The notes beneath the pieces were generated by a model that saw nothing but the letters and a program-made list of their open reading frames with translations, made no database searches and was not told where the DNA came from. A stretch of 36,195 nucleotides of DNA, from the IMG/VR virus record IMGVR_UViG_3300029686_000222, positions 1 to 36,195 of that record; one strand, 5' to 3'. The stretch comes from a virus. Its lineage: Duplodnaviria; Heunggongvirae; Uroviricota; Caudoviricetes. The position numbers and the translations under genes are program-made. Positions within the stretch are counted from its first letter, which is position 1; every line of letters starts with the position of its first letter. Of the stretch, positions 7,835-35,133 are shown in pieces.

Positions 7835-8391
7835 TATTTTTTATTCCCGTTAATATCCTGCAGTAATTCCGGCCATGCAATTGTGGCATACGATGATTTA
7901 TCGGTAATCTGGCTGAAATCCATCGCCTGCAGCGATTTCGCGTAAATGCGCCAGGCTTTTAGGTTTTCCCGGTCTCCGTCACTGATTAACCCCAGCAGCA
8001 GGTCTTTTTCCCACTCACTGGACATAATGCTGGCCTGTTTTAGCAGAACATCACGCTCGTCTTCTGCTTTTAATTTGTAGTCGAAGACAAATTCATCATT
8101 GCGGTAAAACCAGTAACCCGGCGCAGTGATGCGGCGGTTAGCGGTAATATCAGGAACTTCAATAACGCTGGCATTGCGAGGCTCAATACCTGTCACATCC
8201 TTACCGACCCACACCACGCGCCCATCCCCGGTGTAAACTATTTTTATTGTGTCACTGGCGAAATTCTTCAGTTCTTCATACCAGTTTTTACCGTCTTCCG
8301 AAAAAAGCCAGGTGACGGCATATTGTTTTGTCATCTGATATTGTTCAGCTGTTTTCGGATCTCCCGGAGTAATGTTTTTTAAATGAAGCAT
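7834..8391 (-). CDS. Tail fiber assembly protein (P2 gpG / Mu U-like), 185 aa
   Basis: Size and position immediately after a gpH-like fiber gene; typical tail-fiber-assembly family features. Confidence 0.65.
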   Translation of the reverse strand: MLHLKNITPGDPKTAEQYQMTKQYAVTWLFSEDGKNWYEELKNFASDTIKIVYTGDGRVVWVGKDVTGIEPRNASVIEVPDITANRRITAPGYWFYRNDEFVFDYKLKAEDERDVLLKQASIMSSEWEKDLLLGLISDGDRENLKAWRIYAKSLQAMDFSQITDKSSYATIAWPELLQDINGNKK

Positions 8392-8393
8392 TG

Positions 8394-10097
8394 TTATACA
8401 CTCGCTACGTTATACCAGGTGCCATTAATCAGTTTCTGAAGAGGGCGGTAATACACGCCGCTGATGTTATCTGCCGAGTTGCTTCCGGTTTCCTGCACGT
8501 TAATACCGGATAATCCGTGGCCTGAAGGTGAGCGAAATGTCCAGGATATCTGGTTACCTCCTGGGTTATAAAACATTTCGGAGCCATAGCGGATATCCTG
8601 CACTCCTGTTCTGCCCAGGTAACCGGCTAATGAACCGCCCCAGATACTTCCATGCACATCGCCATTTGATGCGAGGCGGGCAGAGCCACTTCCTGACTGC
8701 ACTTCACCGGATGCAACACAGTTACCATTTACGCCATTTCCCAGAGATACTTTGCCGGTGGATAAGTCGATCGTAAACGGTCTCAATCCGTTAAACCCCC
8801 CGTATGGGGTGCCCCTGTCGGTCATCATCAGATACAGGTAAGTGCCGTTCTGGTGCCAGAATGATCCGATATTTCCGTATACCATTCTGTAGCTGTTTGG
8901 AGATGCTGTTTGTATCTCTCCTGCGCTTTTTACCATGCCAGTTGTCTGTAGTTGTGGGAGTGTCAGGGGGCCTGTCATTGTGTCGCCACTGCGCTGAACT
9001 GCACCGTCAGCTTTATCGACAGTGGGTTTTAATCCGACATTTTCGATAAACAGTGGTTTGTTGGGGATGTCGCTACCGTTGCGATTTTTAGCAAGACGAT
9101 CATTAGCGTTATTCATTGCGATTTTTACCGCTTTTGACGTGGCGGCGCGGTCTTCTGCGTCGCTGTCGGTGGCGTTGCTGTACTGCGCAAAGCCTTTCTC
9201 ATTCAGTGTTGCGTCCGGGTGTCTGCGGGATTTCTCGTGCTCTGCCAGTGCATTGCTTTGTTCCTCGTCGGGTGTCTCCGGGCGCAGGTCCTGCGGGCCG
9301 TCTGCTGTCATTTTTGCAAGTGGCGCGACAAAGTGTCGGAAGCCGTTACCGTCTGTATAGGACGCATGTTCCTTGCTGGCGCAGAACGTAAAAACGGTAT
9401 TCCATTCGCCGGTAACAAATCCCTGCCAGCTTGCATCAATCCAGAGGGTATCCCCGACCGCAGCCGGCAGGCTGTAAGGTTCGCGCAGACTGACGCGCAG
9501 GCCTCCCACATAACCCACGCCGGCGGCAACAGTGGCGGTACCGTCCTGATAGCTGACCTGAAAACCGTCCCCCAGAAAGGCAGCTTCACCGTAGTGATCA
9601 AATGCCAACAGGCGACGTGATTCATCCATTCCCGCGAGTCGGGCAGTAAAATCAATCTGCCAGACATCAGCACTGACATCGATATGCATTGCCGCAGCCG
9701 CACCGTCAAACTCCATGGCAAAGGTGCGAATAAGGTTATTTCCCTGCACGCCGTTTGCTGTTTTAATTTTTTGCTGGCGCGGTGTGTGTGCAATCATGCA
9801 GAGCACGCCGCTTTCTTCGTTCATGAGGCCAATCCAGTTATATTCGAAGTCACCGATAGTGGTGTCCAGAATAATGGAAAATGCGGCAGCATTCGGGGAC
9901 AGCAGTCCATACTGAGTGACCGGCGCGCGGTACTGAATCATGGATTCATCGGGCAAAGCCTCGTCACGGGGAATTTCGGCAGACTCATCCTGTCCCGGGA
10001 TATACGCAAAAACAAACATGTCCGGGCGTGCGGGTTTATCGCTGATAATCTGATCTGCGCACCAGTTTTCATATTGTTCAGTAATAATTGTGCTCAT
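8394..10097 (-). CDS. Tail fiber protein (P2 gpH-like C-terminal region), 567 aa
   Basis: EHEKSRRHPDATLNEKGFAQYSNATDSDAEDRAATSKAVK matches the conserved P2 H / Mu S block (EHEQSRRHPDA..KGFTQLSSATNSTSE..AATPKAVK); C-terminal KLINGTWYNVASV matches the P2 H terminus (KYINGTWYNVAQV). Confidence 0.85.
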   Translation of the reverse strand: MSTIITEQYENWCADQIISDKPARPDMFVFAYIPGQDESAEIPRDEALPDESMIQYRAPVTQYGLLSPNAAAFSIILDTTIGDFEYNWIGLMNEESGVLCMIAHTPRQQKIKTANGVQGNNLIRTFAMEFDGAAAAMHIDVSADVWQIDFTARLAGMDESRRLLAFDHYGEAAFLGDGFQVSYQDGTATVAAGVGYVGGLRVSLREPYSLPAAVGDTLWIDASWQGFVTGEWNTVFTFCASKEHASYTDGNGFRHFVAPLAKMTADGPQDLRPETPDEEQSNALAEHEKSRRHPDATLNEKGFAQYSNATDSDAEDRAATSKAVKIAMNNANDRLAKNRNGSDIPNKPLFIENVGLKPTVDKADGAVQRSGDTMTGPLTLPQLQTTGMVKSAGEIQTASPNSYRMVYGNIGSFWHQNGTYLYLMMTDRGTPYGGFNGLRPFTIDLSTGKVSLGNGVNGNCVASGEVQSGSGSARLASNGDVHGSIWGGSLAGYLGRTGVQDIRYGSEMFYNPGGNQISWTFRSPSGHGLSGINVQETGSNSADNISGVYYRPLQKLINGTWYNVASV

Positions 10098-26380: not shown

Positions 26381-27340
26381 TTACTCCTTGTCCATTGCGT
26401 ACAGCCCATTAACCAGAGCAAACTGTGGCACCCTGTCCGCGATGAAAGTCGCATTAACTCCGCAGGCTTCGCGGATAGCGGGTGCCACAATCTCCGCCCC
26501 GCCACCGACAACCATCACCCGCCCGTAACCCGAAAAACCCGCCAGCGCGCGGATCACGCGTTGTTTCAGTGTTTCTTCCTTTTCACGAATAACCGCCATC
26601 AGGCCGGCGTAATGCGCGTCATTGTGGATGTGCTGGCGCAGCCAGGCTTCATCGTGGCGATGTTCGATAATGGTATTGGCGATATGGTGACTGGTACGCA
26701 TACCGTTGGTGGCCATCACTGACAGTACGGCATCGGCTATCAGGGAAACGCCTACGTGTGGATCGCAAAATACCTGGCTGATACCTGCCAGTTGTCCCTG
26801 AACCTTTGCCACATCCAGCGTGGTTCCGCCCAAATCCACAATCAGCAGGGATTCAAACGGACTCATGTCAGCCAGTGCCTTAAAGCCAGCCGGAATGGAT
26901 TCAGGCATAACCCGCACGTTACGGATAGTGAATGCCTCACCGTTCTGGTACTCCACCGGGCGCATGACGTTCGCTTTTTTGCGGTTGATGTTGGCCATGT
27001 CCGGCTGTGCGTTTGTGTCGAAATACTCGCTCAGTGGCAGGGTGACAACCACATCCACCTCCTGTGGCGTGATGCCTGATTTGACCAGCGCATGATGAAT
27101 GGCAATGACATTCACATCGCTGTACTGGTATTGCGTGTCGGTCGTCTGGACAAAGCGATCGCTGACCGGATCAAAACCATAGCGCACGCCATCAAGCATG
27201 TAGTTCGCGGGCTGCGTGCCACCGAACGGCGCAGACCATTCCGACTTGAAGCTGTTCGGGCTGATGGCGTTGCGGCGTTCGCCGTTCTCAGTCCATGCCA
27301 GCTTGATGTTGGTGGAGCCGTCGTCGATACAAATTTTCAT
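26381..27340 (-). CDS. parM: ParM/StbA-like actin-type partition ATPase, 319 aa
   Basis: N-terminal phosphate-1 motif MKICIDDGSTNIKLAW (R1 ParM: FIDDGSTNIKLQW); later LIVDLGGTTLDV and VVGGGA motifs typical of the actin/ParM fold. Confidence 0.85.
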   Translation of the reverse strand: MKICIDDGSTNIKLAWTENGERRNAISPNSFKSEWSAPFGGTQPANYMLDGVRYGFDPVSDRFVQTTDTQYQYSDVNVIAIHHALVKSGITPQEVDVVVTLPLSEYFDTNAQPDMANINRKKANVMRPVEYQNGEAFTIRNVRVMPESIPAGFKALADMSPFESLLIVDLGGTTLDVAKVQGQLAGISQVFCDPHVGVSLIADAVLSVMATNGMRTSHHIANTIIEHRHDEAWLRQHIHNDAHYAGLMAVIREKEETLKQRVIRALAGFSGYGRVMVVGGGAEIVAPAIREACGVNATFIADRVPQFALVNGLYAMDKE

Positions 27341-27371: not shown

Positions 27372-27470
27372 TTTACGGGATTCTGAAATCCCGTTTTCGC
27401 CTGTTTTGTGCGCGCTTCATATATCGCGGCGCGTTTTTTGCTCATTTACGGGATTTGTGAATCCCGTTTC
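27372..27470. repeat. Two near-identical imperfect palindromes (~26 bp) flanking the parM upstream region; candidate parC-like centromere or operator
   Basis: TTTACGGGATTCTGAAATCCCGTTTT (27372-27397) and TTTACGGGATTTGTGAATCCCGTTTC (27445-27470); the second lies inside the last codons of gene A. Confidence 0.4.
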
Positions 27471-30239
27471 TGTCTGCTTTTTGTTTCCACTGGTCAGGCC
27501 ACCCCGCAGCAGGTCTGCTTTGCGGCGGGCGCGTTCAGTGGTTTCACTGATTCTCTGTGCGTGCTCTGCGTCACGGATGGCGCGCAGCATGTCAGAAAGC
27601 ACGGTAACGGGGGTTTTCATGGTGTTCTGGTCCTGCTGAAGTGTGGATGCCAGGCGTGCGGCGGCTTCGGGGTCTGATGCCCCCAGCTGTTCCAGATAGC
27701 TGGCAACCGGGTTATGGCGGATCTCCGTGCTGCTTACGCCGTGATTACGGCTCAGGCGCTGCCAGAGCTGCGTGATTCGGCTGTCCGGGCGGGTATCCGG
27801 TTTGCGTACAATTTCAAATCCCTGCGGTGCAATGATGCTGCCGTCAACGTACAGGCTGCCGCCCCGTAACAGGTGCTGCATCTGATGTTCACCGATATGC
27901 AGGCCGAGAGATTCAGCAGACTCCCGCCATTCTTTAGCGAGTAATTCGTGGTTATCAGGCAAAGGCCGCTGCTGTTTGCGGCTCTGTGTCCAGCTCTGCA
28001 TTTCATCACTGCTGTTTTTTGCCTGTTTGTCACGCAGCGAACGCATCAGCGCCCGGCGTTCGTGCCGTTTCAGTGAGCGCATCCATTCGTTCACTTCAAT
28101 GCCGTCAGGGAACTGCGGCCACGGTGTTGGCCGTTCTTCCGGCTGTTCTGTCCCGCTGTTGTCCGTTTCCTGTACACGGGGACAGTTATTGCCACGAGTC
28201 CAAGGGGCGGCAGGGCCGCCCTGAAGGTCAAAACCATTTTCGCGGGTGCTGTCTTCCGCTTCCGGTTTGCGTCTTACCAGCTTCCAGTTATCCGGATGCG
28301 TGCACACACGGGAGGATTCCCCGATGAGTGGTGACCAGATCCCGTAAATCTGTACGCTCTGTTCGCCGTAATCGTTCAGCTCATCTGCGAGGTCGTAGGC
28401 GGTGCGAATCAGGTAGTCTTTGCGTGGAACAAGTACGCCGCCCTGTTTCTCTATGTAGGTGGCAAAACATCCGGCATCAGCGGCAGCAAGAACCGCGTCC
28501 ATTGCGTCATCCTTCAGCCGTTGCGGTCCTTCCGGGTTGCGAGCCATCTGGCTGGCAAGGCGACGCAGTTCACGCCACACCTGACGGGAGGGGATACCAA
28601 AGAACTGGAACTGGCGGACCCGGTGAAGGCGCGCCCAGCCGATGGCACGCTCCACGCTCTCGGCCATTGATTTTCCGGTTTCGTGGTCAACGCGTGGCTT
28701 GCCCGTTTTCGGGTCGATGCCATCCACGGCGCGGTTGTCCAGGTTCTTTCCGATGTAGGTGGCGATGTAGCTGGTTGGTGTGCCTTTTGAGCCGTCGACA
28801 TACTCCACCTTAAAGCGCGGAGTAATATCATTGCCCAGCTCGTGGCGGTCTTCCTGAATGGCAATATCGCGGGTGTGGGACACAATGGTGTCGATTTCTT
28901 CCGGATGAGCAAAGACCATCATATGCCAGTGCACGGTGCCGTCATGGTGAGGCTCCACCGTGCGGATGCCATACCAGCGCAGGCCGTCGCGGTTCAGTTT
29001 CTTGCGGACCGCCGCAAAAAACGTGTTAACCAGGTAATCGCTGGAGTCGCGCATGGTGGCCCCGTTCCATTTGGGATTCGGATGACCGTTCTCTGTTGTG
29101 GCGTGGTATTTTGACGGGCAGGTGACAGTCAGAAACACCGCTTTGTCGCCACGGGCTTCGGCCAGAAGTTCCAGTCCCTTCATGGTGGCCATCATTTCTG
29201 CCTTACGGTGAACCGGGTTACTTACTCCCGCGTAATACACTGTCTCGAGATCAATCGTGAACCCGTCTTCGTTTTCCAGCATGAAACTTTTCAGGAAATC
29301 GCGTGTTTTCTCGCGCTGTGCGCGAAACTCGCTTAACGCGTCCTGGCTCAGATAGGGCGATGTTTTTCTGGAAACCAGACAGGCGGCGCGGAGTTGTTCT
29401 TCCCGCCACTCGCAACGTAACAGCCACAGTTTGCGTTTCCACCATTCCGCACAGGTCAGGCGAAGGATTGCGCCCGGCAGCAGCTCCGTGTCCGGTTCGT
29501 TCCTCCGGTCTTTATCTGTTGTCAGTGCGTCATAATGTGGAGGCATGGCGTGCAGGTGTAACGCCATGCGGGCCAGCATCTGATACGCCTTCAGCGTTAC
29601 GTCCATGGTCAGCTCGCCATCGGTCGCGCCAAAGCCATCACAGAGTTTTTCGAAGGTGCTGCTGAACATCGCCGCCGTCATGGTAGCCAGCGTCTGTATC
29701 TGGTGCTTGTTGAGCTGCGGCAGGTAAAGCAAATCGTCCAGGCGTTCGCGTCCGGCAAGAGAGCGATAACCCGGTGTCAGCCAGCGGTGGTCGGTGCGGT
29801 CCAGACGTTCGAATATTTTGCGCAGGGTTCCGCGCGCGTAGCGTTCAGCCTGCCAGCTCTTTTTGCCTTTCCGGCGATCGGCTTCCTGTTTTTTGCGCAG
29901 GAAGGAGAGGTGGCGAATAAGCGTATCGCGCAGATAGGACGGCAGCAGGCGCAGCGAGGCCATGGCTTCATCCACCGCACCGCGTGCCTGTTTTCTGGCT
30001 TCTCTGGCCAGTGTGATGGTTTTGTCCTGCTTTTCCTGTGCGTCCAGGCTTTTATTAATCAGGTTGCCCAGCGGTGTGGCGGAGAACGCCGCGTCAGCCA
30101 TTTCCTGGCGGCGCTCGTTCTCTGCCCGGTAGGCATCCAGCCAGGAGGAAAGTGCGGATTCAGGTGCGGGGATCCCCGTTCCTTCACGTCCTACTGTGTG
30201 GCGCGGTTGTTGCCAGTCCCTGATGTACTCTGTCGTCAT
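27417..30239 (-). CDS. A: Replication initiation endonuclease, P2 gpA-like (rolling-circle HUH-type), 940 aa
   Basis: HUH-like motif VHWHMMVF and paired catalytic tyrosines in YIATYIGK, as in P2 A / phiX174 A-type initiators. Confidence 0.85.
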   Translation of the reverse strand: MTTEYIRDWQQPRHTVGREGTGIPAPESALSSWLDAYRAENERRQEMADAAFSATPLGNLINKSLDAQEKQDKTITLAREARKQARGAVDEAMASLRLLPSYLRDTLIRHLSFLRKKQEADRRKGKKSWQAERYARGTLRKIFERLDRTDHRWLTPGYRSLAGRERLDDLLYLPQLNKHQIQTLATMTAAMFSSTFEKLCDGFGATDGELTMDVTLKAYQMLARMALHLHAMPPHYDALTTDKDRRNEPDTELLPGAILRLTCAEWWKRKLWLLRCEWREEQLRAACLVSRKTSPYLSQDALSEFRAQREKTRDFLKSFMLENEDGFTIDLETVYYAGVSNPVHRKAEMMATMKGLELLAEARGDKAVFLTVTCPSKYHATTENGHPNPKWNGATMRDSSDYLVNTFFAAVRKKLNRDGLRWYGIRTVEPHHDGTVHWHMMVFAHPEEIDTIVSHTRDIAIQEDRHELGNDITPRFKVEYVDGSKGTPTSYIATYIGKNLDNRAVDGIDPKTGKPRVDHETGKSMAESVERAIGWARLHRVRQFQFFGIPSRQVWRELRRLASQMARNPEGPQRLKDDAMDAVLAAADAGCFATYIEKQGGVLVPRKDYLIRTAYDLADELNDYGEQSVQIYGIWSPLIGESSRVCTHPDNWKLVRRKPEAEDSTRENGFDLQGGPAAPWTRGNNCPRVQETDNSGTEQPEERPTPWPQFPDGIEVNEWMRSLKRHERRALMRSLRDKQAKNSSDEMQSWTQSRKQQRPLPDNHELLAKEWRESAESLGLHIGEHQMQHLLRGGSLYVDGSIIAPQGFEIVRKPDTRPDSRITQLWQRLSRNHGVSSTEIRHNPVASYLEQLGASDPEAAARLASTLQQDQNTMKTPVTVLSDMLRAIRDAEHAQRISETTERARRKADLLRGGLTSGNKKQTETGFTNPVNEQKTRRDI

Positions 30240-30245
30240 ACTGAT

Positions 30246-30611
30246 TTACTTCGTCATACCGTCCAGAGTGTCACGGCAAACGGTAGCCAGCCGCTGAATT
30301 TCCAGCACGGTGTCTTCTGTGTCGGCATAGCGATGTGTGATGCGGATGCTGTCTGCAATCACATCGACGATCGCAGAGGATGGGCACTGGTAAATGCCAA
30401 TAACGGACGGGGTGCCGCCTTCAATGCGGTAAAGCCTGTAATTTCCCTCGTGGCTGTCAATCATGTAGCGGCCATCAATAACAATCTTTCCGTCAGCGAG
30501 CTGCGGTACAGGCAGGGATTTCAGGTACATGTCATAACGGTCACGCACGCGAACGGCAAGATCGCGCTCTGTGTTCATCAGCCAGTCAATAAAGTTTTCT
30601 GCGAGAATCAT
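30246..30611 (-). CDS. Hypothetical early protein (121 aa), translationally coupled to gene A
   Basis: AAGAGG RBS; its stop overlaps the A start. Confidence 0.5.
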   Translation of the reverse strand: MILAENFIDWLMNTERDLAVRVRDRYDMYLKSLPVPQLADGKIVIDGRYMIDSHEGNYRLYRIEGGTPSVIGIYQCPSSAIVDVIADSIRITHRYADTEDTVLEIQRLATVCRDTLDGMTK

Positions 30612-30683
30612 TGCGGCAATCCTCTTGTTACAGATGTGCGAAGGCCTCCCGCCGCAAGGTGCAGGAAAGGCCCGGAACCAGAA

Positions 30684-30914
30684 TTAATGGAGTTTGTTTT
30701 GCTGCTGGATGAGCTGTTGAAGCTCGTACAAATCATCCGCCAGATAGCTAAAAACAGAGGCGGAATAAGTGTTTGATAGCGCATGACTGCGTTCATGCAG
30801 CATATTGATGTGCATGATTTGCGCGACGCGTGATGCGCGGAAAAGTCTGCGGTTGATTTCAGTCTGGATGTGACGACGCTCCGCGATAGCGCGGTGCTGT
30901 TTGCGGTTTGCCAT
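30684..30914 (-). CDS. Hypothetical small basic protein (76 aa)
   Basis: ATG with AGAGAGG RBS; overlapped by a longer low-complexity ORF in another frame that was rejected. Confidence 0.45.
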   Translation of the reverse strand: MANRKQHRAIAERRHIQTEINRRLFRASRVAQIMHINMLHERSHALSNTYSASVFSYLADDLYELQQLIQQQNKLH

Positions 30915-31093
30915 GGTGTGGCCTCTCTGTTAGTCAGTTTTGAAAACTCACCATCCAGAGGTTCCAAGCTCGGGGTGGTGAGACGCACAGGGTTGGAACT
31001 ACCGGCTAACAGAGGACCCGGCCCAGCTGATGCTGGCCCTGTACGCCCCACCATAATTCGTGTGCGAAAAAGACATGGCGATACGGTACGCAC

Positions 31094-31114
31094 AAAAAAA
31101 CCGCTGGCGCGGTT
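31094..31114 (-). terminator. Weak candidate intrinsic terminator within the early-region intergenic gap
   Basis: Minus-strand AACCGC-gcca-GCGGTT followed by TTTTT; 6-bp stem only. Confidence 0.3.
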
Positions 31115-31234
31115 GTGCGCTCTGTTAGTCTGCGGGGTTCCAATCCCGGCACCCGTTTTATGAGATGCAGCGGAAATGTAACCTGACTGATTGCGGCATG
31201 GCAAGCGGTTTTTTTGTGTGTGCATGATGATTAC

Positions 31235-31795
31235 TCAGTTTGGTAATAGCTCGTACAGCACGGCGTCAGCGGCGGTGCGGCGACCGTAAAGAAAACGTGC
31301 TGTGCGAGTGGTGACTTTTATTTGCAGTGTGTGATTAATGTGTTTTGCTATCATGGCGAACGTCATGTGCTGCTCATCATGTAGTTCAGTCACCAGTTCC
31401 ACCAGGTGATCGCTGTATCTGGTCAGGTGGTGGAGTCCTCCGCATTTTCGCAGGCTGTAACCACGTTTTTTCAGGTGCACTTGTACGGTGCGAATGGTGC
31501 ATCCCACCTCGGCGGCCAGTTCCCGTGCCGTTCTGGTGCGGCGGTTTTCAATGAGAAAGGCGATCTCCTTTGCACTCAGAGTCTTTTTTTTGCGACCAAT
31601 CAATCCACGATCACGTAAAAAACTTAGTCGGTGCATAACTGCGTCATGGGTTCGTTGAATTTGTTCGGTTATCTGGCGTGTGTTGCACTCCGGATAAAGC
31701 GAGATAAGCATTTCATCTTCCTGTTGTGTCCATGGCTTTACATGTGCCGGAGCCACGCCAGGTGTACTCATTGGTTTGAGTTTGAAGTTATGCAT
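31235..31795 (-). CDS. HTH-containing early protein (186 aa); possible P2 B-like replication accessory protein
   Basis: GAGGT RBS; two helix-turn-helix-like segments (TRQITEQIQRTHDAVMHRL; TARELAAEVGCTIRTVQVHLKKRG). Assignment to B is by position only. Confidence 0.45.
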   Translation of the reverse strand: MHNFKLKPMSTPGVAPAHVKPWTQQEDEMLISLYPECNTRQITEQIQRTHDAVMHRLSFLRDRGLIGRKKKTLSAKEIAFLIENRRTRTARELAAEVGCTIRTVQVHLKKRGYSLRKCGGLHHLTRYSDHLVELVTELHDEQHMTFAMIAKHINHTLQIKVTTRTARFLYGRRTAADAVLYELLPN

Positions 31796-31823
31796 ATTTT
31801 TTTACCTCGTTAGTGGTGGTGCT

Positions 31824-31970
31824 TTACACGGCGTATAAACCGCGGTGGTGGCACCACACTTCAAACATTCGTTTCACAATTTCGCGGCAGTAGTAGCCAT
31901 CGATATCTCTTGTCAGGTCGTAGCGGTTGCCGTAACGCTGATGCATCCATCGTTCAAAGGCTTTGTGCAT
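31824..31970 (-). CDS. Hypothetical small protein (48 aa): MHKAFERWMHQRYGNRYDLTRDIDGYYCREIVKRMFEVWCHHRGLYAV
   Basis: Hand-translated; not in the ORF track. AAGGGA RBS 9 nt upstream; fills the gap between two early genes. Confidence 0.4.
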   Translation of the reverse strand: MHKAFERWMHQRYGNRYDLTRDIDGYYCREIVKRMFEVWCHHRGLYAV

Positions 31971-34839: not shown

Positions 34840-35133
34840 ATGGACATTCCTCAAAAAATTCGCGTCATGCGCAAATCTGAAGATCTCACTCAGCGGGAAT
34901 TCGCTGATATGATTGGAATTTCTTATTCTGCTCTGACCAGTTATGAGTATGGTCGTAACCTTCCTGGCCTTGAGATCACTATCAAGCTTTTCAAGCACCC
35001 GAGATTTTCTAAATACCGCGACTGGTTTCTGTTTGATGAAGTTGAACCCAAGGCCGGGCAGGTTGTACCGGCTCTCGCACACATTGGGCAAGGCGAAGCG
35101 GAATCATCCCGCTCCGGCAAGAAGACTGGTTAA
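34840..35133 (+). CDS. C: Immunity repressor, P2 C-like (98 aa)
   Basis: Start at the ATG with AGGAG RBS. KIRVMRKSEDLTQREFADMIGISYSALTSYEYGRN and the VPALAHIGQGE...SGKKTG terminus match P2 C (KIVLMRKSEYLSRQQLADLTGVPYGTLSYYESGRS ... APALAHFGQNE...SGQKTG). Confidence 0.85.
   Translation: MDIPQKIRVMRKSEDLTQREFADMIGISYSALTSYEYGRNLPGLEITIKLFKHPRFSKYRDWFLFDEVEPKAGQVVPALAHIGQGEAESSRSGKKTG

Follow-up and report, generated by a model that had tools for sequence, protein, structure and literature searches.

The early region of the viral DNA considered here holds a 320-bp island (positions 30915–31234), situated between a 76-aa gene and an upstream 186-aa gene and marked by a repeated motif, and the question that it raises is what function such an apparently non-coding stretch serves. 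A preliminary description of the window, by which is meant the whole stretch of 36,195 nucleotides that was analysed, suggested three possibilities: an sRNA, an element involved in replication or regulation, or an internal promoter that would serve the A operon. In the present analysis, the island is identified with high confidence (a probability of roughly 0.88) as an IsrK–C4 module, an RNA system of the P1 immI/P4 immunity type that would control immunity and the anti-repressor. An intergenic island is thereby given a precise annotation as a regulatory module, down to base pairs that can be tested. The module sits within the early operon of its host element, a P2-like prophage (Xuanwuvirus, P88-like). 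This kind of module is already understood from phages P1 and P4; what is new here is a clear further example. The identification is based directly on family membership, structure, six complementary elements and the three-way covariation among them, together with the gene neighbourhood and the homology found for the first regulated gene.

Two RNAs and their signals on the minus strand

The features of the island all fall into place when they are read on the minus strand, which is the strand of the flanking genes. The covariance search against Rfam that the preliminary description had proposed as a check returned two full-length RNAs of curated families above the gathering score, so the sRNA option is borne out, and the two RNAs together form a regulatory element, as the same description had also allowed. 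The units of the module are listed below; its promoter is predicted, as are the ends of the transcripts and the sites of processing.

31175–31204, minus strand: predicted sigma-70 promoter P_isrK (-35 TTGCCA at 31204–31199, 18-nt spacer, -10 TACATT at 31180–31175)
31094–31168, minus strand: IsrK-type leader RNA (two 5' hairpins, a single-stranded tract and an intrinsic terminator)
31094–31114, minus strand: intrinsic terminator of IsrK (AACCGCGCCAGCGGUU, then a U-run)
30971–31058, minus strand: C4 antisense RNA gene (Rfam boundaries)

The C4 RNA matches Rfam RF01695 with 76.4 bits (gathering score, GA, 45; E = 2e-13) over model positions 1–87 of 87, and its minimum-free-energy structure (MFE -47 kcal/mol, z = -5.2) is the family structure, in which a long closing stem encloses two hairpins. 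The ends of C4, an acceptor-like stem followed by ACC, are analogous in sequence to those processed by RNase P in P1, and the mature RNA would extend from about 31052 to 30974 if the annotated P1 c4 is taken as the guide. The leader matches RF01394 (isrK) with 70.2 bits (GA 50) over model positions 1–77 of 77 and is the equivalent of the a1b1 leader of P1 and the seqA leader of P4; the same model also matches the PLE leader of P4, and the P1 a1b1 leader stays below the threshold (35 bits). Taken alone, IsrK folds no better than shuffled sequence (z = -0.75). The spacer between isrK and C4 varies by phage, being 21, 24, 25, 35 or 107 nt long.

P_isrK is the sole promoter-like site that was found in a scan of positions 30500–31900; an A7 tract lies just upstream of it, the end of its -10 lies 7 nt upstream of where IsrK begins (31168), and it is conserved in the P88-like relatives. 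In P1, the annotated promoter P1c4/P51b occupies the corresponding position, with identical spacing to the a1b1 leader. A predicted sigma-70-like promoter directed toward gene A agrees with the earlier suggestion of an internal promoter for the A operon. With regard to SOS input, matches to a LexA box (CTGT-N8-ACAG) occur at chance level, with none around 31.2 kb.

The minus-strand terminator at 31094–31114, recognized in the preliminary description, is called independently by a terminator scan (a 6-bp stem at 31114–31099 followed by a U-run) and by the isrK model, in which it makes up the 3' hairpin; none of the 6 stem pairs varies among 14 aligned relatives. The terminator is presumably leaky, by analogy with Gifsy-1 IsrK, for which terminator read-through is known (PMC4825925). 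A second terminator, proposed earlier as a plus-strand GC hairpin with a T-run near 31195–31215, was rejected: the fold is weak (-8.8 kcal/mol) and absent from the terminator scan, part of the T-run is consumed by G.U pairs, and no plus-strand gene leads into the hairpin. The stretch consists instead of the A-tract and -35 region (promoter/UP) of the minus-strand promoter.

Complementary elements

The motif CTCTGTTAG occurs three times in the whole window, all within the island (0.10 copies expected; none of 100 shuffles reaches three), which matches the earlier count of two direct copies and one inverted copy. Both direct copies extend to the longer match CTCTGTTAGTC, and the inverted copy extends to CTCTGTTAGCC. 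Alongside this b set stands a second trio, a'/a1/a2 (GUUCCAA/UUGGAAC).

30925–30933 and 31120–31128, plus strand: direct copies of CTCTGTTAG
31006–31014, minus strand: inverted copy of CTCTGTTAG
31137–31143 and 30961–30967, minus strand: TTGGAAC, with its complement at 30993–30999

In the 320 bp lie all three copies of CTCTGTTAG and three of the four window copies of TTGGAAC, each oriented as RNA pairing requires. The strand logic, the second (a) repeat set and the known RNA family had escaped the preliminary description. In the order of transcription, the six elements are the following.

31137–31143, minus strand: target a1, UUGGAAC, in the loop of IsrK hairpin 2; complement of C4 a'
31120–31128, minus strand: target b1, CUAACAGAG, in the single-stranded tract of IsrK; complement of C4 b'
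31006–31014, minus strand: b', CUCUGUUAG, in the loop of C4 hairpin 2
30993–30999, minus strand: a', GUUCCAA, in the single-stranded junction 3' of C4 hairpin 2
30961–30967, minus strand: target a2, UUGGAAC, beginning 4 nt past the 3' boundary of the Rfam C4 match
30925–30933, minus strand: target b2, CUAACAGAG, whose 3' end overlaps the Shine-Dalgarno sequence of the 76-aa gene

Just downstream of C4, as in P1, b2 and a2 are perfect 9-nt and 7-nt complements of b' and a', and the second target copies, a1 and b1, lie in the leader upstream of C4. The Shine-Dalgarno sequence GAGAGG of the 76-aa gene lies at 30927–30922 and its ATG at 30914–30912, and the b'–b2 duplex reaches just the 5' part of the former. 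The preliminary description had envisaged a long-range stem of about 10 bp; the pairing is real, as pairing between an antisense RNA and its targets, but a static fold is not what it represents. The isolated 9-nt and 7-nt duplexes gain only modestly in energy over shuffled loops. The case is therefore built on covariation and homology and not on thermodynamics.

Covariation among related prophages

Conservation among related prophages, the other check proposed at the outset, was examined with 14 aligned modules of P88-like prophages for covariation and with 19 relatives for codon and frame analyses; further diversity was supplied by a phage collection and by scanning viral contigs for a DNA pattern, the contigs giving 41 distinct modules. 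The module is kept in the P88-like relatives, and its variation is concentrated in six islands (a', a1, a2, b', b1 and b2), which change jointly: pairwise identity in the 14 modules is 92% outside these islands and 64% inside. When the C4 and IsrK helices are considered together with a'–a2 and b'–b2, 99.5% of cells are paired, compared with 39–50% when the partners are slid. Within C4, helices 4–6 are 99.6–100% paired in the 14 relatives, with 4 pairs changed on both sides, and the compensatory changes fall in helices 4 and 5.

The helices formed by C4 with the leader are paired in 99.6% of cells, with compensatory changes in 11 of 16 pairs and a score that none of 500 shuffles reaches; a1–a' is paired in 99% of cells with both-side changes in 4 of 7 pairs, and b1–b' in 100% with both-side changes in 7 of 9. 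Similarly, the helices with the downstream targets have 10 compensatory pairs out of 16, a'–a2 being 100% paired (4 of 7 pairs compensatory) and b'–b2 97.6% paired (6 of 9). Among the 41 viral-contig modules, a perfect match of at least 7 nt is found for 66–98% of cognate loops, in comparison with 2–3% of non-cognate combinations.

Repeats of this kind could also be DNA sites, for instance replication-origin iterons or operators for a protein such as the upstream 186-aa helix-turn-helix protein. Three 9-mers and three 7-mers do lie within 320 bp, beside the gene of an annotated DNA-binding protein and upstream of gene A, and copies of one DNA site would co-vary too. However, the inverted copies occupy the loop and the junction of a high-scoring structured RNA, and the pair types include several G.U wobbles, as expected of paired RNA but not of repeated copies of a single DNA site. 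Furthermore, the P1 annotation describes the equivalent elements as binding sites for C4 RNA, and P4 carries both RNA models. The replication option, in particular, is not supported: the ori nick site is annotated within gene A in P2 and is placed there by similarity in 186. The DNA-site explanation is given hardly any credence. As for the 186-aa protein itself, its earlier label as B-like does not hold, since BLASTP against P2 gpB gives no alignment; it has weak, sub-threshold matches to helix-turn-helix Pfam families.

The genes probably regulated

Downstream of the module, three genes follow on the same strand with short gaps.

30684–30914, minus strand: 76-aa gene, the first regulated gene, a homologue of the P4 epsilon (E) anti-repressor (derepression protein)
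30246–30611, minus strand: orf121
27417–30239, minus strand: gene A, rolling-circle replication initiator (Pfam Phage_GPA, 437 bits)

The 76-aa protein belongs to Pfam PF25738, the P4 epsilon family (30 bits, GA 27), and aligns with P4 epsilon by BLASTP at 29% identity over 66 aa (E = 4e-8); its gene is annotated as encoding a derepression protein in P88 and in RefSeq and varies in a coding manner, with 33, 27 and 61 variable columns at the three codon positions. Three close loci among genome contigs carry relatives of this protein, and sequence searches of the PDB with orf121 and the 76-aa protein gave no significant match. Epsilon is an anti-repressor that binds the P2 C repressor (PMC2995052), and the 76-aa protein is, judged by its sequence, a putative anti-repressor of the phage's own C repressor, whose gene lies at 34841–35133 on the plus strand. 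By the precedents of P1 and P4, orf121 and gene A (27417–30611) are likely to be under polar control by C4.

Since many prophages are defective, the module might be an inactive remnant in a decaying element. This is very improbable: all six complementary elements are perfect, both RNAs are full length, promoter and terminator are intact, and so are int, C, cox, A and parM around them; moreover, P88, with the same layout, was recovered after mitomycin C and forms plaques (PMC5285337).

The open frame through C4 and the Ash family

An open reading frame also runs through the island.

30608–31054, minus strand: ORF from the C4 AUG (AUG at 31054–31052 in the C4 5' strand), 149 codons

This frame crosses a2 and b2, passes through the 76-aa gene in its +1 frame and reaches the orf121 start codon, which it overlaps as ATGA; it is open to that start codon in 17 of 19 relatives and continues beyond the ATGA in the other two. 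It is the frame of Pfam Phage_ASH and of Gifsy-1 orf45 (PMC4825925), and it stays open while its amino-acid sequence is not conserved. The possibility that the island encodes a protein, namely an Ash family protein from the 205-aa ORF at 30608–31225 on the minus strand, with the repeats being incidental, draws on a match of residues 16–105 of this ORF (window positions about 30911–31180) to PF10554 Phage_ASH at 27.4 bits, just past the GA of 26. It also draws on matches to the N-termini of several PHROG transcriptional-regulator families, on an "ash family protein" pseudogene annotated at the same place in RefSeq, on a frame that is open in all 19 relatives, and on Gifsy-1 orf45, which has the same start codon and is reportedly translated (PMC4825925).

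The substitutions argue against such a protein. The RNA region has no codon periodicity and lacks a third-position excess (16, 17 and 20 variable columns per codon position in the 19 relatives, versus 33, 27 and 61 in the neighbouring gene), which agrees with the earlier judgement that the island holds no credible ORF; its variation falls in the six islands by RNA-compensatory substitutions. Relatives carry 1-nt and 2-nt indels, with an isrK–C4 spacer ranging from 21 to 107 nt. Where the frame overlaps the 76-aa gene, its second positions coincide with the third positions of that gene, and these vary freely. In P4, PF10554 falls on the discarded "cI ORF137" over the CI RNA, and in lambdoid "Rha" CDSs it likewise coincides with the RNA module. 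A protein-coding island is thus very unlikely.

PF10554 has served as a marker for P4 epsilon (PMC8628076), but the real P4 epsilon is PF25738, and PF10554 here tracks the RNA module rather than epsilon. In the phage and RefSeq records inspected, the RNA genes are without annotation, and the module surfaces in them as "ash family protein" pseudogenes and as over-extended Rha/anti-repressor CDSs, which is the practical consequence for annotation.

Comparison with P1 and P4

In the immI region of P1/P7, the c4 antisense RNA controls icd-ant, as Citron and Schuster reportedly described in 1990. When the annotation of P1 (NC_005856) is compared with the window, the order of parts is common to both: promoter (predicted in the window, P51b in P1), a1, b1, a terminator-like hairpin, C4, a2, b2 and the first ORF (icd in P1). 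In both, a1 lies in a hairpin loop and a2 starts 4 nt after the C4 3' end; b2 of P1 ends 10 nt before the icd start codon, and the spacing to the first ORF in the window is about the same. The Rfam C4 model gives P1 68.8 bits versus 76.4 for the window, the regulated function is an anti-repressor in both (from sequence in the window), and specificity would reside in a few loop bases, as in P1/P7 heteroimmunity. The differences lie in the host, a P2-like myovirus versus the P1-like plasmid prophage, and in the genes: the first ORF encodes a P4-epsilon-like protein in the window and Icd in P1, and what follows in the window is orf121 and the rolling-circle initiator A, with no Ant1/2 homologue. 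The window leader scores 70 bits with isrK as against 18 bits with c4-a1b1. Unlike in P1, no C1-type operator is known at the window promoter.

The immunity of P4, in which the CI RNA with seqA and seqC controls the left operon (kil, eta, epsilon, orf151 and alpha), provides the second precedent. Both Rfam models match P4 too, C4 over the CI RNA at 8420–8507 and isrK over the PLE leader, and a three-way complementarity is likewise found (UUCACAGG/CCUGUGAA and GUGAGAA/UUCUCAC). In both elements the module stands upstream of epsilon-family and replication genes, so placed as to gate replication and derepression together. The leader is separated from CI/C4 by 107 nt in P4 and by 35 nt in the window; kil and eta intervene between seqC and epsilon in P4, whereas the epsilon homologue is the first ORF in the window; and the replication proteins, the P4 alpha primase-helicase and the gpA-type nickase, are not homologous. 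P4 is without a protein repressor, whereas the window phage also has a P2-type C/Cox switch, so that the RNA would be a second layer and not the sole immunity. P88-like (Xuanwuvirus) prophages would accordingly combine a P1/P4-type RNA immunity layer with a P2-type C/Cox protein switch, the RNA layer guarding the epsilon-like anti-repressor and the replication gene.

Proposed mechanism and the Gifsy-1 precedent

On the models of P1, P4 and Gifsy-1, from which C4 processing, translational block, polarity and the decoy role are drawn, the following sequence of events is proposed. Transcription from the promoter at 31204–31175 would start at about 31168, and the majority of transcripts would end at the intrinsic terminator (31114–31094), yielding an IsrK-type RNA of about 75 nt with a1 and b1. 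Read-through transcripts would carry C4 (30971–31058), presumably excised with RNase P acting at the 5' end as in P1, and the released RNA would display b' in a hairpin loop and a' in the adjacent single-stranded junction, both available to pair with a2/b2 on every transcript extending as far as the 76-aa gene, be it from this promoter or from the upstream early promoter Pe. With the b'–b2 duplex lying against the Shine-Dalgarno sequence, the epsilon-like anti-repressor would not be translated, and polarity would terminate the untranslated RNA before orf121 and the replication gene A. The a1/b1 copies in IsrK may act as competing decoy sites for C4, so that the block would ease as IsrK or leader transcripts become more abundant.

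Experiments on Gifsy-1 have demonstrated read-through, the processed STnc1160 RNA and trans-activation by the short form of IsrK (Hershko-Shalev et al. 2016, PMC4825925); binding of Hfq, too, is known only there. Like the window (by prediction), Gifsy-1 has a short terminated RNA of the Rfam isrK family and a read-through mRNA, with a stable processed RNA downstream (STnc1160) whose predicted counterpart is C4; in both, an ORF begins with an AUG located in the C4-like 5' strand, and the gene under control codes for an anti-repressor, a putative one in the window. Gifsy-1 is lambdoid and the window phage P2-like, AnrP is of another family than the 76-aa protein, orf45 stops after 45 codons at the anrP start whereas the window frame runs for 149 codons through the 76-aa gene, and nothing seen in the window corresponds to the downstream effect on AntQ. 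The genetics of Gifsy-1 have been read mainly as cis structural switching plus IsrK activation and not as C4-type repression, and toxicity persisted when the STnc1160 region was over-expressed (PMC4825925); elements may therefore differ in how repression and activation are balanced.

With the same parts, the dominant logic could accordingly be activation of the Gifsy-1 type, transcription termination of the P4 type, or both, in place of a simple P1-type translational block: the read-through RNA would fold inactive, the short IsrK would open it in trans, and translation from the C4 AUG would be coupled to the downstream genes. Besides the IsrK–orf45–anrP experiments (PMC4825925), the window retains the orf45-type AUG at 31054–31052, and the frame is open to the orf121 ATGA in the window and in 17 of 19 P88-like modules, where synonymous resampling gives a probability of openness of 0.004–0.27 per sequence. 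Leucine before an A-initial codon uses CTG in 0 of 7 cases versus 21 of 35 elsewhere (p = 0.009), and a conserved GGAUGGUGAG lies downstream, with the C4 3' strand as a possible pairing partner. The close kinship of the relatives, however, means that frame openness is not independent evidence; 2 of the 19 extend past the ATGA, RNase P cleavage as in P1 would remove the AUG, and the perfect complementarity of a2/b2, placed as they are at the epsilon-like gene's ribosome-binding site, is what a repressor model would predict. Activation or termination as the dominant logic is thus a possible but somewhat unlikely alternative to the P1-type block.

A more specific suggestion, put forward tentatively and regarded as rather improbable, is that selection keeps the C4-AUG frame free of stops and that ribosomes on unprocessed read-through RNA tunnel across the anti-repressor gene, coupling the RNA switch to orf121/A. 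Such tunnelling would be a long-range extension of the orf45–anrP coupling of Gifsy-1, and it would explain a spurious Ash protein family wherever the RNA module occurs.

Diversity and distribution

Returning to the P1/P4-type module, its specificity loops are hypervariable and mosaic among phages that are otherwise about 92% identical, and such variability predicts that heteroimmune types are numerous and that cross-talk may occur with P4-like satellites, in which the same system operates. The variants seen number 28 for b' and 16 for a'; the C4 of P88, for example, has a different specificity (CUGUAGUUG versus CUCUGUUAG for b' of the window). An Rfam scan of the P2 and 186 early regions at E <= 0.01 found neither C4 nor isrK, so the module is not a general feature of the Peduoviridae. 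Within complete E. coli genomes, this 700-bp region is present over at least 80% of its length in 1102 of 5426, or about one fifth, and any match to it is found in 1316.

Prophage setting and the intergenic island

The window is a prophage of P2-like type and falls within the Xuanwuvirus (P88-like) group; its right end carries an integrase, a C-type repressor (HTH_3) and Cox. Its early operon on the minus strand runs through DUF4761, DUF4754, MarR-like, Ead/Ea22-like and 186-aa genes into an RNA module, which is followed by the 76-aa gene, orf121, gene A (Phage_GPA, 437 bits) and ParM. The 186-aa gene (31235-31795, minus), previously labelled 'B-like', gave no alignment with P2 gpB; its helix-turn-helix Pfam matches are sub-threshold only, its PHROG match is 'transcriptional regulator, D5-like', and related records call it 'DNA-binding protein'. 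The ParM actin-like segregation gene downstream of gene A is complete (StbA_N and ParM C-terminal domain; 26381-27340, minus), and the gene after it in P88 encodes a partition protein. It is unusual for an integrating P2-like prophage to carry partition genes of plasmid type. By Pfam, the 76-aa protein is a member of PF25738 ('Derepression'), the P4 epsilon family, and its alignment with P4 epsilon shows 29% identity (E = 4e-8); epsilon (E), the anti-repressor, binds the C repressor of P2 (PMC2995052).

The island (30915-31234) lies between the minus-strand 186-aa and 76-aa (30684-30914) genes. The preliminary description reported three copies of CTCTGTTAG in the island. They are the only ones in the 36-kb window, at 30925-30933 (plus), 31120-31128 (plus) and 31006-31014 (minus), against 0.10 copies expected by chance; none of 100 shuffles reached three. 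A second trio had been overlooked, namely TTGGAAC at 31137-31143 and 30961-30967 (both minus) with its complement at 30993-30999.

Two RNA elements in the island

The covariance search proposed in that description, run with Rfam over the whole window at gathering thresholds, returned exactly two matches, each of them full-length and to the minus strand of the island, and the same two at higher sensitivity. The repeats fall on defined parts of these elements:

31204..31175, minus: predicted promoter, TTGCCA-18-TACATT
31094-31168, minus: isrK (RF01394, 70.2 bits, threshold 50)
31137-31143, minus: a1, UUGGAAC, loop of the second IsrK hairpin
31120-31128, minus: b1, CUAACAGAG target in a single-stranded tract of IsrK
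30971-31058, minus: C4 antisense RNA (RF01695, 76.4 bits, threshold 45)
31006-31014, minus: b', inverted CTCTGTTAG copy in the loop of the second C4 hairpin
30993-30999, minus: a', GUUCCAA, single-stranded junction beside that hairpin
30961-30967, minus: a2, UUGGAAC, 4 nt past C4
30925-30933, minus: b2, CUAACAGAG target directly 5' of GAGAGG, the Shine-Dalgarno sequence of the 76-aa gene, with which it overlaps

The computed fold of C4 is that of its family (-47 kcal/mol, z = -5.2), and the predicted promoter, the sole promoter-like site in the area, ends 7 nt upstream of the IsrK 5' end. The minus-strand terminator at 31114-31094 was called separately by a terminator scan; the 'GC hairpin with T-run' described on the plus strand folds weakly (-8.8 kcal/mol including G.U pairs) and drew no call. 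We assign the element, with a probability of about 0.88 for its identification and general logic, to the C4/CI antisense-RNA immunity systems with an IsrK/a1b1 leader, a well-known kind to which the window adds another member; only two side findings, concerning the Ash family annotation and a persistently open frame, go beyond existing knowledge. Among the earlier suggestions, a small RNA, a regulator and an internal promoter (predicted) are retained, and a replication element and a plus-strand terminator are dropped.

Just 3' of a2 (about 30945-30954, minus), all side-by-side loci conserve GGAUGGUGAG (GGUGGUGAG in other phages), a repeat of the 5' strand of the C4 closing stem. It could pair with the C4 3' strand (CUCACCACC) to give an alternative fold of the unprocessed transcript, comparable to structures A and B of Gifsy-1.

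Known systems and proposed mechanism

The annotated order in P1 is promoter P1c4 (P51b), a1 (48255-48261), b1 (48269-48276), c4 RNA (48343-48419), a2 (48423-48429), b2 (48452-48459), icd from 48470 and then ant1/ant2, with spacings nearly equal to those of the window; at corresponding places P1 is matched by the Rfam models for C4 and c4-a1b1 and, with a sub-threshold score, by that for isrK. In P4 this cassette likewise precedes epsilon and the replication gene, with the C4 model over the CI RNA and the isrK model over the PLE leader. In Gifsy-1, experiments have demonstrated that transcription reads through the IsrK terminator, that a processed RNA (STnc1160) lies downstream, that short IsrK activates in trans and that orf45, which starts within the C4-like region, is translated; the authors pointed out the likeness of the locus to P4 SeqA/CI (PMC4825925).

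The analysis establishes the parts of the window module, their structure, and the complementarity with its upkeep in evolution; from P1, P4 and Gifsy-1 we infer how the module would work, from promoter firing through decoy switching. The promoter would be active in the lysogen and most transcripts would terminate as IsrK, while C4 would arise by read-through and be trimmed out. Its a' and b' would then bind a2 and b2 on every transcript reaching the 76-aa gene, those begun at the early promoter Pe among them; since there is no terminator between the 186-aa gene and the IsrK promoter, early-operon transcripts should read into the module. For the epsilon-like gene, such pairing would block the ribosome-binding site, and polarity would keep orf121 and A from being expressed; IsrK and leader transcripts bearing a1/b1 would compete for C4, so that the system could turn on. 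That activation and coupling as in Gifsy-1, or termination as in P4, is instead the dominant mode here seems somewhat unlikely.

Conservation and covariation

The conservation among relatives that had been proposed as a check was found: the isrK and C4 pair is present in all 19 related loci examined, which include P88, Citrobacter phage Shae_phiSM, Salmonella and E. albertii prophages, lambdoid Stx/Rha-type phages, Yersinia and Klebsiella phages and satellite P4. C4 and isrK are both absent from the early regions of P2 and 186; hence the P88-like lineage is the only one, among the P2-like phages examined, in which the module was seen. Of 5426 complete E. coli genomes, 1102 (about a fifth) carry at least 80% of the 700-bp region, and 1316 match it at least in part.

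The complementarity of the parts is maintained in evolution, as loop and both targets vary jointly between phages:

P88: b' CUGUAGUUG, targets CAACUACAG; a' GUGGAAA, targets UUUCCAC
Related locus L004: b' CUUCGUUAG, targets CUAACGAAG; a' GUUGAGAA, targets UUCUCAAC
P4: b' CCUGUGAA, targets UUCACAGG; a' UUCUCAC, targets GUGAGAA

A DNA-pattern scan of viral contigs yielded 41 distinct modules with 28 b' and 16 a' variants, in which perfect loop/target matches of at least 7 nt occurred in 66-98% of cognate and 2-3% of non-cognate sets. Across 14 aligned P88-like modules, pairwise identity is 64% within the six islands (a', b', a1, b1, a2, b2) versus 92% outside. The C4 and IsrK helices together with b'-b2 and a'-a2 are 99.5% paired, versus 39-50% with partners slid by 1-3 columns, and both sides have changed in 6 of 9 b'-b2 and 4 of 7 a'-a2 pairs. 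The a1-a' and b1-b' pairings reach 99.6% (compensatory pairs 11/16), with a covariation score of 0.71 versus 0.15 when shuffled (0/500 shuffles as high). Several pair types are G.U wobbles, which favours RNA pairing over repeated DNA sites.

In the same alignment, the a and b specificities assort independently among otherwise ~92% identical prophages, a' GUUCCAA being combined with three different b' loops, and in at least one locus (L033) a1 (UUCUCAC) is mismatched to its own a' (GUGGAAA) while a2 still matches; together these suggest recombination between modules. Two further Rfam matches were noted in relatives: sRNA-Xcc1 (79.6 bits) directly 5' of an anti-repressor gene of phage phi191 (L013, 2523-2606, plus), and ryfA (134.6 bits) near the related module of Yersinia phage vB_YpM_39 (L014, 149-447, minus).

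The Phage_ASH family

Alternatively, the 205-aa ORF over the island could encode a Phage_ASH protein, as its Pfam score, barely over threshold, and a RefSeq 'ash family protein' pseudogene at the island would suggest. However, four points stand against it. Substitutions in the RNA region lack codon periodicity (16/17/20, versus 33/27/61 in the 76-aa gene), in keeping with the earlier remark that the island holds no credible ORF; relatives differ by indels of 1 and 2 nt; IsrK-C4 spacer lengths differ across phages by other than multiples of three; and PF10554 coincides with the obsolete, long-dropped P4 'cI ORF137' over the CI RNA (true epsilon being PF25738), as well as with residues 117-213 of over-extended 'Rha' CDSs, exactly the isrK-C4-a2b2 module.

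PF10554 ('Phage_ASH') appears to be a conceptual translation of this RNA module. It matches the window at 30911-31180 (minus) in the 205-aa ORF, P4 at 8330-8521 (minus; L020) and two related loci (L002, 5052-5306; L007, 1494-1784); N-terminal extensions of annotated 383-aa 'Rha/antirepressor' CDSs are among the sequences it covers. The family leads to 'ash family protein' pseudogenes in RefSeq PGAP annotation, and a survey of P4 satellites took it as the epsilon marker (PMC8628076).

An open frame from the AUG in C4

One further feature overlaps the module:

30608-31054, minus: open frame from an AUG at C4 position 5, corresponding to the Gifsy-1 orf45 start and the Ash frame

This frame has no stop across the whole 76-aa gene, of which it is the +1 frame, in 19/19 P88-like relatives (including L001-L006, L033, L047, L106 and L107), and in 17 of them its stop overlaps the start codon of the following gene as ATGA, despite four different downstream N-termini. 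Under synonymous codon resampling, the +1 frame is open with a probability of 0.004-0.27 per sequence, the +2 frame holds 1-5 stops, and CTG is never used for Leu ahead of A-initial codons (p = 0.009); by the resampling and the Leu-codon context, openness may have been selected. Since the frame shows no amino-acid conservation among the P88-like relatives and the sequences compared are closely related, such selection is an unproven possibility and, with translational coupling to orf121-A as its conceivable basis, is judged quite unlikely.

Between the 76-aa gene and orf121, a spacer of 72 nt contains a G+C-rich stem-loop (GGCCUUUCC...GGGAGGCC; about 30625-30665, minus) without a U-run, kept in most P88-like relatives, which might be a processing or pause site.
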